DNA of 61,860 nucleotides, from positions 1-61,860 of the forward strand of contig JAHZHK010000001.1 in the NCBI GenBank assembly GCA_019420325.1, in the 5' to 3' direction. The position numbers and the translations under genes were made by a program. The stretch comes from Coriobacteriaceae bacterium (GTDB taxonomy: Bacteria > Actinomycetota > Coriobacteriia > Coriobacteriales > UMGS124). How positions within the stretch are numbered: position 1 is the stretch's first letter; every line of letters begins with the position of its first letter. Below, piece by piece: positions 8,693 through 10,859 of this stretch. Under the pieces are notes generated by a model. It was not told where the DNA came from and ran no database searches. It was given only the letters and a program-made list of their open reading frames with translations.

Positions 8693-10859
8693 GTGGTTGA
8701 GACCAACGACAAGATGATGAGCGAGGGCTTTATAGAGAGCTTCGAGCGCCGGTATCCTTCTCATATCTTGGAGACGCTTTTGTGCGACCGCACGACGGGA
8801 CACAACATCATCTGGGCCGACAACGAGTACGAGGTCTTGGGCGATGGCTACATGGGCGATGACGAGATAACTGTCGAAAAGATTACGGGTCTCAACTCCG
8901 GAGTTATCAAGCCTCGCGTTGCCAAAGAACTCGAGAAGCAGTCGCAGCGCACCAAGAGCCGTGCCGAGGTGTTCACACCCTCGTGGCTGTGCAACCAGAT
9001 GAACAACAACCTGGACGAAGTGTGGTTCGGCCGTCGCGACGTGTTCAACCGCGAGGCCGACGGCTTGTGGGCTGCAAACGCCGAGCCAGTCGAGTTCCCC
9101 AAGAAGACGGGACATGGCTGGCACGCTTATGTGGAGAGTGCGCGCCTTGAGATAACCTGTGGCGAGGCACCCTTCGTGTGTTCCCGCTACGACACCGTGA
9201 CGGGCCGTGCTCTGCCGGTGGGCGAGCGTATCGGCTTTCTCGATCGCAAACTGCGCGTCGTTTCGGAGAAGGCCAAGACGCGCAAGGAATGGGTGCGCCA
9301 TGCCCTGGATGCCCTGAAGGCGACCTATGCGTTCGAGTACCAGGGAGACAACCTGCTGCTTGCCAGAATCAACGTGTTTGAGACGTTTGTCGAGCACATG
9401 CGTGCCAGATGGGGCGAGGGACCAACGGCGGAGGAACTGCAACAGGCCTCTTGGATCGTCTCATGGAATGTCTGGCAGATGGACGGTTTCACCGATGCCG
9501 TGCCTACGAACAAAGAGGGCGTTGCCGTACAGTCGACTTTGTTCGACTACGACGCGCCGAAACCCGAGCCGGCGCAGCTGTCCCTGTTCGACTTGTTCGA
9601 GGACGACGACACCGTTGGCGACTCCACAGTGGACGACGAGCCGGGGCAGACGGTCCCCCTTTGCGTAATATACGATTGGAAAAATGATGAACCGATTGAG
9701 TTCGCGACTTTGAAGAATGAGGTGAGCGGCATGCTCCAAGCAAGCAAGCAAGCAAGCAAGCAAGCAAGCAAGCAAGCAAGCAAGCAAGCAATTCTATGCT
9801 GTAATTGGCAACCCGCCGTATCAGGTGGCCTGCGGCGACGCTGAATCGGGAAATAAGACTTACGCTGCGCCGATATACCATGAGTTCATGGACTCGTCTT
9901 TTAGAGTCGCGGATAAGGTCGAAGTCATCACCCCCGCTCGATTTCTTTTTGATGCCGGTTCAACCCCCAAAGCATGGAACCAGAAGATGCTCAACGATGA
10001 GCACTTCAAGGTGATGGAGTATTACGCCGACGCTTCGACGGTATTTCCCGGGACGGATATCAAGGGTGGAGTGGCGGTCTCATACCGCGATGCTGGTCAG
10101 GATTTCGGAGCGGTCAAGGTCTTTACTAAATCCGAAGAGTTGAACCAAATACTTCAAAAGACACGTCTATCGTCGGGATATAAAGGGATGGATTGCATTG
10201 CCATTTCCCGAACTGTCTACAGATTGACCGACTGTCTGCATCGTGATTTTCCATTTGCGCACTATGCCGAAGATGATAGTGACGAGAACATTGGCCGGTT
10301 AAGCAAAGGCCATGATTATGATATGTCCACTAACATTTTCGATTGTCTGCCCGAGGTCTTTCATGATGACCGGCCTGATGATGGAGAACAATATGTCCGT
10401 ATATTGGGAAGGGCTGACAATAATCGCTGCTATAAGTATATAAAAGCGAAGTACGTCAATAATCCAAAGCCGTTGCATTCCTACTCCATCGTTCTTCCCA
10501 AGGCAAGCGGTACGGGAGAATTCGGAGAGATTCTTTCGCAGCCAGTACTGACTGCGCCCGGTACGGGTTCGACCGAATCGTTTCTGAGCATCGGCTGCTT
10601 TAAATCTGGGAATGAGGGCGAAAACTGTCTCAAGTATATCTCGACTAAGTTTGCCAGGGCGATGCTTGGGGTTTTAAAGATAACGCAAGATCTTACTCCC
10701 AAAAAATGGGCCTACGTCCCCCTCCAGGACTTCACCTCCTCCTCCGATATCGACTGGTCCTGTTTCATCCCCGAAATCGACCGGCAGCTCTACGCGAAAT
10801 ACGGTCTCGATGAGAACGAGATTGCCTTCATCGAGTCTCACGTGAAGGAGATGAGCTAG
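8693..10859 (+). CDS. Gamma-class N6-adenine DNA methyltransferase (Eco57I/TaqI-like), phase-variable, frame-shifted (OFF) at an internal (CAAG)n tract
   Basis: ORF 8693..9844 carries motif X (AEVFTPSWL) and a motif I-like segment (LEITCGEAPF). It runs through the repeat as QASKQASK... and stops out of frame at 9844. The +1 frame is open through the tract, reads FYAVIGNPPYQ (motif IV) from 9792, and continues as ORF 9825..10859 ending LYAKYGLDENEIAFIE. Deleting one 4-nt unit, or adding two, fuses both halves into a protein of about 720 aa. Confidence 0.75.
9737..9791. repeat. Tetranucleotide simple sequence repeat, 13 x CAAG plus CAA (equivalently 13 x GCAA), inside the methyltransferase gene
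   Basis: Direct count: caag units start at 9737, 9741 ... 9785, followed by caa at 9789-9791. Confidence 0.95.

Follow-up and report, generated by a model that had tools for sequence, protein, structure and literature searches.

We analysed a 61,860-nt stretch of DNA (referred to as the window) from a Coriobacteriaceae bacterium (GenBank assembly GCA_019420325.1, contig JAHZHK010000001.1, positions 1-61,860, forward strand). The element under study is a long tetranucleotide repeat inside a gene for a DNA methyltransferase, which a preliminary description of the sequence had proposed as a phase-variation switch. The repeat separates an N-terminal half (N-half, module A) from a C-terminal half (C-half, module B), and the gene comprises the following features:

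8693-9736, forward strand: module A, the N-half of the methyltransferase, starting at GTG 8693 or at ATG 8714 or 8717; no Pfam domain
8966-8980 and 9149-9175, forward strand: the motifs EVFTP and EITCGEAPF of module A, invariant in the family
9737-9791, forward strand: (CAAG)13+CAA simple sequence repeat, 55 bp, inside the methyltransferase gene
9792-10859, forward strand: module B, the C-half, with FYAVIGNPPYQ, the Pfam domain Eco57I and then a variable target-recognition region
9810-9821, forward strand: NPPY codons (motif IV) of module B
9842-9844, forward strand: TGA ending the frame of the N-half at a copy number of n = 13, 17 codons past the tract

Repeat tract and frame logic of the methyltransferase gene

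Direct reading and Tandem Repeats Finder (9737-9791: period 4, 13.8 copies, 100% matches, no indels) both confirm a perfect 55-bp tract of 13 CAAG units plus CAA, as had been described. The tract is the sole simple repeat of at least 16 bp in the window, the runners-up measuring 12-15 bp. Its origin by chance was ruled out using 100 dinucleotide-preserving shuffles, in which a 16-mer of the CAAG repeat was expected 0.00 times; 11 were observed, all overlapping within the tract. No stop codon occurs within it in any of the three sense frames (QASK, KQAS or SKQA). The upstream open reading frame (ORF; 8693-9844, 383 amino acids, aa) translates the tract as QASK repeats before it reaches the stop at 9844, while a second frame is open across the tract, reads FYAVIGNPPYQ from 9792 and has its stop codon at 10857-10859. 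Both frames had been given correctly in the preliminary description.

The effect of copy number was simulated by rebuilding the region in silico with other values of n and reading the ORF lengths. A single ORF of 716, 720, 724 or 728 aa results for n = 9, 12, 15 or 18, and truncated products of 363-387 aa for out-of-frame n (383 aa for n = 13, 371 aa for n = 14). The earlier statement that the loss of one unit or the gain of two yields an ORF of about 720 aa is correct according to this simulation and contains no arithmetic error. Between the preceding stop of the downstream frame and the NPPY codons there is no ATG, GTG or TTG, and for this reason the catalytic NPPY is left untranslated in the out-of-frame state; a gene caller starts the C-terminal fragment at ATG 9888. 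The tract is a pure repeat in coding sequence, its unit is not a multiple of 3, and it lies above the length threshold for calling phase variation from tetranucleotides, which is at least 3 units (PMC5909438).

The two ORFs of the window represent one gene, since full-length homologues exist. More than 7000 homologues of the in-frame protein were found, and the best 120 are single proteins of 644-751 aa with 58-71% identity; most full-length homologues measure 690-750 aa. Named hosts are Bifidobacterium adolescentis, Collinsella and Phoenicibacter. Nearly all of the top 120 have no repeat at the position of the tract, where their sequence reads ...LKGKAAAMGKKFYAVIGNPPYQ or ...FEFATLKGKAAAMGKKFYAVIGNPPYQ. 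Scanning one genome per GTDB species, we obtained 507 relatives of the methyltransferase, chiefly from Coriobacteriia (Collinsella, Atopobium, Olsenella and relatives of Eggerthella) and Bifidobacterium, together with some Firmicutes and Bacteroidota bins. The host itself is an uncultured gut bacterium of the Coriobacteriaceae, as its core proteins cluster at 90% identity or more with NCBI proteins so named, and the locus is chromosomal (MetRS, metA and Tad pilus genes). The high-GC Gram-positive-type genome suspected earlier is accordingly that of an actinomycetote of the Coriobacteriaceae, with a genomic GC content of 62-67% (about 64%).

Repeats at the same joint in relatives

Other repeats were detected in relatives at the same site, directly past a conserved Met and ahead of KFYAVIGNPPY (related loci and proteins carry L and P numbers in the following). 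Two genes contain (CACAG)6 in frame (L002, L003), and (CACAG)15 is in frame in a long-read polished contig (L090); (CACAG)7 in L092 and (CACAG)4 in L091 are out of frame. (CACAG)11+CACA is present in L093, L094 and L077, an Ellagibacter bin (L081) has a contig ending in at least 15 CACAG units, and L084 has two 10-unit CACAG blocks with Ns between them. L082 carries (CAACG) in at least 11 units, again at a contig end. In a more distant genome of 55% GC (L095), an interrupted (CAAG)4-CA-(CAAG)3 was found and the gene is split as assembled. The N-half-only proteins P0406 and P0411 end in RHGTA and TNER repeat tails, which imply CGGCA and ACGA units, respectively. At least five different 4- or 5-bp units are therefore found at the same inter-module joint, i.e., CAAG, CACAG and CAACG, plus CGGCA and ACGA deduced from peptides. 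In a neighbour-joining tree of 250 N-halves, calculated without support values, the repeat-bearing alleles fall into at least four places rather than one clade, and several unit types occur within single clades. One further protein, P0372, has HSTAQ repeats followed by the tail CLLYTSPSPRDK..., which looks like translated sequencing-adapter sequence at a contig end within the tract.

Copy number varies among closely related alleles. Seven loci of the CACAG lineage, whose N-halves are 96-100% identical, have n = 4, 6, 6, 7, 15, at least 11 and at least 11. L003 and L090 represent the same allele (C-halves 100% identical) with n = 6 versus n = 15, and in this lineage, in-frame products of 723 and 738 aa share one 90% protein cluster with truncated ones of 378 and 384 aa. 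These observations, i.e., other units at the same codon position, with variable n, in and out of frame, support the slipped-strand switch proposed for the methyltransferase gene. The comparison of repeat counts among related strains, suggested at the outset as a check, turned out positive for the sister CACAG alleles. For the window allele, it gave 13 units in the window (BioSample SAMN16796225), 13 units in a second strain from another sample with the same gene order (L088, BioSample SAMN25043069), and a contig breaking within the tract (L089); both values of 13 coincide with the assembly floor discussed below.

A tract of this kind might also serve as a variable-length linker, meaning that a (QASK)n spacer is normally in frame, its length tunes the spacing of the modules, and out-of-frame copies are rare losers. 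The position at a module joint would fit, as would the tolerance of in-frame alleles for 6 or 15 CACAG units, equal to 10 or 25 residues. Further, a first AlphaFold model for the in-frame protein of 720 aa is poor (predicted local distance difference test, pLDDT, 68), with low confidence over residues 264-390 (below 50), and the repeat peptide is not confidently ordered. However, 4- and 5-bp units shift the frame in two of three slippage events, which makes switching unavoidable, whereas selection for a spacer should favour units of 3 or 6 bp. Moreover, L091 and L092 are out of frame with tracts (n = 4 and n = 7, respectively) that are short enough to be assembled reliably, and the databases contain many products consisting of the N-half and a repeat tail, some of which represent 14-35 member sequences. 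We therefore regard a mere linker as very unlikely.

Module B appears to differ in history from module A. GC falls at the tract from 58% in the N-half (8693-9736) to 49% in the C-half (9792-10859), in a genome of about 64% GC, and the identity of the window protein to its best relatives is 72% in the N-half and 57% in the C-half. Behind the single CACAG lineage of N-halves stand at least four classes of C-halves with 47-58% identity. Thus, the specificity module looks as if it had been horizontally exchanged. One could argue from these data that the repeat and the adjoining FYAVIGNPPYQ codons act mainly as a crossover point for swapping module B, which would be compatible with a switch. Nevertheless, the residues past NPPYQ vary also among repeat-free homologues in the same mosaic manner, so that the repeat is not needed for exchange, and we consider this role as the main one to be unlikely.

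Short runs of C or G in or beside the NPPY codons form a second recurrent frameshift site. It is carried by 13 Collinsella/Olsenella loci (L063-L075), by L080 and by L015, and appears in the proteins P0309, P0316, P0331, P0333, P0343, P0376, P0381, P0387, P0408 and P0420. Two of the 13 GTDB loci were read; they are identical (AATCCCCATATCAG, one C short), and tblastn puts their frameshifts at one and the same position. The remaining 11 have a hit profile like theirs. L080 combines C7 in NPPY with a G9 frameshift, and L015 has an in-frame G10 just past NPPYQ. These runs could be homopolymer switches, decay or sequencing error. In addition, P0373 is a chimera in which the methyltransferase runs, shortly past NPPYQ, into the C-terminal region of the downstream helicase protein (a deletion or rearrangement product).

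Selection, probable assembly floor and the recorded copy number

The split gene may also be a stable pseudogene. The methyltransferase is split as assembled in the window, in L088 and in L095, an in-frame copy of the window allele is missing from the record, and in other family members the gene is interrupted by an insertion sequence (IS) or broken at short homopolymers. Comparison of the window with L088 speaks against a gene inactivated by the repeat frameshift and now decaying. In the N-half, the synonymous divergence (dS) is 0.29 and the ratio of non-synonymous to synonymous divergence (dN/dS) is 0.09 (54 synonymous and 20 non-synonymous changes), and the C-half gives a dS of 0.20 and a dN/dS of 0.10 (41 and 17 changes). 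The neighbouring cassette genes, which are intact, are similarly constrained (dN/dS 0.05-0.08), and neither half shows extra stops or indels between the two strains. The flanks of the tract differ at 16 of 120 and 22 of 300 positions (7-13%), while the 55-bp tract is perfect in both strains; a pure repeat amid diverging flanks is the expected product of ongoing slippage. Since both halves are under purifying selection and the tract is kept perfect, the locus is to be seen as a contingency locus, and a stable pseudogene is hardly credible. L088 has one additional A past the tract (CAAATTC versus CAATTC in the window) and consequently would be in frame at n = 11, 14 or 17, compared to 12, 15 or 18 in the window.

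Whether n = 13 describes the cells is a separate matter. The naming style of the window record is that of a large SPAdes-based metagenome pipeline. The largest default k-mer length (k) of SPAdes is 55. In a de Bruijn graph with k = 55, any (CAAG)n+CAA with n of at least 13 shrinks to a shortest walk of 55 bp, and any (CACAG)n+CACA with n of at least 11 to one of 59 bp. The window has 55 bp and so has L088, from another sample and strain, while L093, L094 and L077 all have the predicted 59 bp. At contig ends, the repeat measures 55 bp in L082 and 77 bp in L081, a K77 assembly; Ns interrupt the tract of L084, and the L089 contig starts within the repeat. Varied copy numbers (4, 6, 6, 7 and 15) were found solely in tracts shorter than k and in the long-read contig. 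De Bruijn assemblers are known to collapse repeats of length k or more (PMC6868369), and the large metagenome pipeline uses SPAdes in metagenomic mode (PMC9721005). The repeat itself is real, but we hence think it probable that n = 13 is a lower bound and that the gene is split in the record only, as an artefact; this challenges the OFF call rather than the switch. By the same token, the tract is probably longer in the cells, and it is possibly in frame in most of them. On the other hand, the window record may stem from another assembler or another k, SPAdes sometimes resolves short loops with reads, and the two strains could indeed have a modal number of 13.

Because n = 13 coincides with the floor, copy number and phase are not given by the assembly. 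The designation of the gene as OFF in this sequence is consequently not supported, as 55 bp would be recorded for any n of at least 13 and L088 shows the same 55 bp. More generally, short-read de Bruijn assemblies report such tracts at the floor of their k-mer set, and ON/OFF calls as well as “pseudogene” annotations drawn from metagenome-assembled genomes at these loci are therefore unreliable.

Taking the frame logic, the sister alleles and the selection data together, the CAAG tract is very probably a hypermutable contingency locus, acting as a slipped-strand switch of a restriction-type defence system. Some observations weigh against this interpretation. No in-frame copy of the window allele was found among 5.8 billion protein clusters, the best full-length match being 71% identical, although the lack of an in-frame record can be attributed to the assembly floor, which fixes the recorded length. 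The allele was located in only three contigs (window, L088 and L089), and the two fully assembled CAAG alleles both have exactly 13 units, a stability which is unexpected unless it reflects the assembly floor. Finally, several relatives have frameshifts in short runs of C or G that resemble simple decay or errors of sequencing, so that not every split copy is a switch. Regarding the searches, exact-protein look-ups led back to the scaffold of the window and to no other in all three cases (N-half, C-half and 1119-aa neighbour), and protein-cluster look-ups yielded two related contigs. (CAAG)4 adjoining the FYAVIGNPP codons gave 0 matches in a JGI metagenome scan and an IMG/VR scan, and when proteins were searched again with the N-half, the fragments of the window and of L088 themselves were not among the results, which did however reveal other repeat types.

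The cassette, its enzyme class and the proposed switch

The methyltransferase gene is the first of five cassette genes; the other four are:

10862-14221, forward strand: 1119-aa partner protein with T5orf172 (GIY-YIG-like), a superfamily 2 (SF2) helicase (ResIII) and a C-terminus resembling a methyltransferase N-lobe
14226-15560, forward strand: 444-aa conserved cassette protein, no recognisable domain
15547-16758, forward strand: 403-aa conserved cassette protein; a protein at least 90% identical to it is named “ParB” by the UniRef source
16745-18688, forward strand: 647-aa SNF2-family helicase, last of the five cassette genes

The ATG of the 1119-aa gene lies 2 nt past the methyltransferase stop, and its Shine-Dalgarno sequence AAGGAG (10845-10850) is located within the last methyltransferase codons. 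The cassette is kept in distant relatives, comprising the methyltransferase (about 700 aa), the T5orf172-helicase protein (1119-1127 aa), a protein of about 445 aa, one of 403 aa and the SNF2 helicase (647-652 aa). Since Bifidobacterium pseudolongum and Parolsenella have proteins with at least 90% identity to the 403-aa protein, the cassette moves horizontally. No named defence system was assigned to it by PADLOC or NCBIfam, and the 444- and 403-aa proteins match nothing there; the helicase models of DISARM, Dpd and Zorya match the SNF2 protein weakly. In related contigs, the DUF4143 ATPase gene (cluster of 7223-8536) is accompanied by mere fragments of the SNF2 helicase of 65-126 aa (P0148-P0151, P0154, P0159-P0163), which suggests strains of the same species with the cassette deleted or truncated.

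Database comparisons place the methyltransferase in an enzyme class other than Type III. The only Pfam match is Eco57I (PF07669, E = 5e-15, residues 351-450 of the in-frame protein), which covers NPPY and the region downstream. PADLOC reports the halves as MTase_II and the C-half as REase_MTase_IIG, and the best Foldseek matches, all weak, are CamA, PglX, M.BseCI and MmeI. A Type III Mod, i.e., a beta-class enzyme with DPPY ahead of the AdoMet motif and a central recognition domain, was ruled out, as there is no match to a Type III family, the recognition region is C-terminal and the order of motifs differs. Likewise, the 1119-aa protein is no Type III Res; it contains the ResIII helicase, but begins with T5orf172 and ends in a region like a methyltransferase N-lobe rather than in a PD-(D/E)xK nuclease. 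The view that the enzyme belongs to a family other than Type III mod is upheld by the Pfam result, by Foldseek and by the C-terminal recognition region. As to the motifs, the preliminary description had put the tract between motif I and motif IV and had assigned motifs X and I to the upstream frame. Motif IV is certain, while motif I is plausible: EVFTP and EITCGEAPF are invariant and resemble motifs X and I, but module A has no Pfam match and its Foldseek matches are non-significant (led by PglX, DrdV and LlaGI) despite a confident AlphaFold model (pLDDT 90.6). With respect to Type IIG/IIL enzymes, an Eco57I-type methyltransferase domain with NPPY is present. As to an endonuclease in the same chain, module A has neither a Pfam nor a significant fold match, and its plasmid homologues are annotated as “restriction endonuclease” or “subunit M” without evidence.

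A plasmid of Pediococcus offers a different arrangement of the same parts. There, the homologue of the N-half is a separate gene of 279 aa, followed by a 1410-aa protein in which the counterpart of the 1119-aa protein (residues 10-1077, 50% identity) is fused to the counterpart of the C-half (45% identity). The latter part starts exactly at F-x-V-V/I-GNPPYQ, with Pfam N6_Mtase spanning the junction. Designating the helicase protein as C, Pediococcus has A | C-B and the window A-B | C, and the repeat coincides exactly with the A|B joint, a natural module boundary. Module A is found in 1592 clusters at 50% identity, in stand-alone (about 260-350 aa) and fused forms. Another splitting at this joint was noticed in a Bifidobacterium longum plasmid (L096, NZ_CP065398.1, 8962-12436), where an IS256-family transposase gene stands between the genes for the N-half and the C-half.

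The end of the 1119-aa gene (13700-14221; QIFTPKNVV..., DLYMKSGLYITE..., VFGIAPT...) aligns with the N-terminal N6_Mtase portion of the 1410-aa Pediococcus enzyme. On the sole basis of this homology, the methyltransferase domain may be split in the cassette, with the N-lobe on the helicase protein and the catalytic lobe on another protein. In the 1119-aa protein itself, this region has no Pfam match. Joining the C-terminus of the 1119-aa protein to module B produced no Pfam match beyond Eco57I, BLASTP found no similarity between this C-terminus and module A, and sequence searches of the PDB by phmmer with the methyltransferase and its neighbour, as well as with a family profile, matched no chain. 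Judging from its domain content, the enzyme is a split relative of single-chain nuclease-helicase-methyltransferase enzymes of the Type ISP kind, in which nuclease, SF2 helicase, N6-adenine methyltransferase and recognition region follow each other in one chain (PMC4666363). The 1410-aa Pediococcus homologue has that domain order in a single chain, these parts being distributed in the window over A-B and the 1119-aa protein. Unlike Type ISP enzymes, the system has T5orf172 instead of Mrr, and sequence similarity to solved structures including LlaGI and LlaBIII, which appeared as non-significant fold matches only, is not detectable. A further difference is that the catalytic and recognition part of the window enzyme is off the helicase chain and fused to the extra module A, next to three more cassette genes.

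In the mechanism we propose, slipped-strand mispairing during replication would add or remove units of 4 bp. Whenever n is divisible by 3 in the window strain, corresponding to one of three phases, module A would be in frame with module B, and the ON product would be an active N6-adenine methyltransferase or specificity subunit of about 720 aa, as predicted from the sequence. In the other two phases, translation would stop 4 or 17 codons past the tract, yielding module A alone, with NPPY and the recognition region untranslated. Without module B, the helicase-nuclease machinery would be left with no recognition domain. With ribosomes stopping 1 kb upstream, translation of the 1119-aa gene may drop as well, and a lowered amount of this protein in OFF cells would avoid self-restriction of unmethylated DNA. 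Most likely, the switch turns both modification and sequence-specific restriction or defence on and off in a fraction of cells, because the gene heads a five-gene cassette akin to the single-chain enzymes. We infer that slippage occurs at a useful rate in this organism, that restriction is silenced in the OFF state and that there is a biological pay-off. Switching of the whole downstream operon, as already put forward in the preliminary description, would follow from the 2-nt gene spacing and from the target-recognition domain lost in OFF. A phasevarion, in which the switch would regulate other genes, is possible but not supported. The helicase and nuclease genes, being intact and under constraint, suggest a defence system that can be switched.

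A more far-reaching version, which we offer tentatively and regard as rather doubtful, is a family-wide contingency hot spot that arose repeatedly and in which the switch may be more than ON/OFF, the helicase-nuclease machine being toggled between two activities. It is based on the OFF product, i.e., module A, which is well folded and occurs as a stand-alone protein in other taxa, and on the helicase protein, which keeps a methyltransferase N-lobe of its own. The cells could thus alternate between a sequence-specific, self-modifying state with A-B present and a state without the recognition domain and with a different activity.

Compared to known systems, the mechanism is classical, whereas family and host are new. 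As in Type III mod genes, a tetra- or pentanucleotide repeat lies within a methyltransferase ORF, and gain or loss of units switches the full protein; highly variable recognition domains are attached to conserved parts as in phase-variable mod genes, and the methyltransferase gene precedes that of a helicase-type partner as in Type III systems. The CACAG unit of the sister lineage is, in another register, the GCACA[n] catalogued in unrelated Type III mod genes, and repeats in Type III mod genes of Gram-positives, including a Corynebacterium, have been catalogued as well (PMC5909438). In contrast to Type III systems, the window enzyme has NPPY followed by a C-terminal recognition region and matches Eco57I, its partner carries an N-terminal T5orf172, and three further cassette genes follow. 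Furthermore, its repeat stands mid-gene at a module joint, and the OFF state would leave a module of 350 aa that is folded according to the model. Repeat switching beyond Type III is known from Cj0031, a phase-variable enzyme of Type IIG in Campylobacter jejuni, and from Type I hsdM, hsdS and hsdR genes bearing simple sequence repeats (PMC4889913, PMC7383803), and thus includes Eco57I-like gamma-class enzymes and multi-subunit systems. Those cases mostly involve homopolymers or short tracts in Proteobacteria and Firmicutes, whereas the family of the window has long tetra- and pentanucleotide tracts at one fixed position and is centred on gut Coriobacteriia and Bifidobacterium. Literature searches that covered phase variation in Collinsella, in Bifidobacterium and in Eco57I-type enzymes yielded no report of repeat-driven switching in this enzyme family or in Coriobacteriia, and a search that was not a survey gave no paper on such switching in Type ISP enzymes.

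Repeat-driven switching of methyltransferases is well studied in mucosal pathogens and hardly documented in gut commensal Actinomycetota. What the present locus adds is the recurrent hot spot at a module joint, together with the caveat of the assembly floor: a widespread cassette, with relatives in about 500 GTDB species, has a slippery tract at a fixed joint, varying copy number and shuffled specificity domains. If the proposed switch is real, clonal gut populations would be mixtures of methylome and defence states, with a bearing on phage-host dynamics, on barriers to DNA uptake and transformation, and on methylation-based metagenome binning.

Several further features of the window were noted. 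An 821-aa protein (3985-6450) has a C-terminal N6_Mtase domain (PADLOC: Type I HsdM-like) behind a long N-terminal extension; it is a separate methyltransferase beside the cassette and is kept in 370 cluster members. Four imperfect 23-bp direct repeats (ACCAGTGAAACTGNCGGAAAANN) at 7059-7169, also present in strain L088, are closely followed by a TATAAT-like box and by the DUF4143/AAA ATPase gene (7223-8536), and may form an operator or iteron-like array. Imperfect tandem repeats with 75-88% matches occur at 37993-38075 (15/30 bp, within a 1509-aa ORF on the minus strand), 32148-32221 (15/33 bp) and 34298-34341 (6 bp); they look like low-complexity coding repeats rather than frame-shifting switches. 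A Tad-type pilus locus at 51534-55398, with a ParA/CpaE-like ATPase, a TadA-type secretion ATPase and a TadB/C-like membrane protein, is consistent with a chromosome of a host-associated member of the Actinomycetota.

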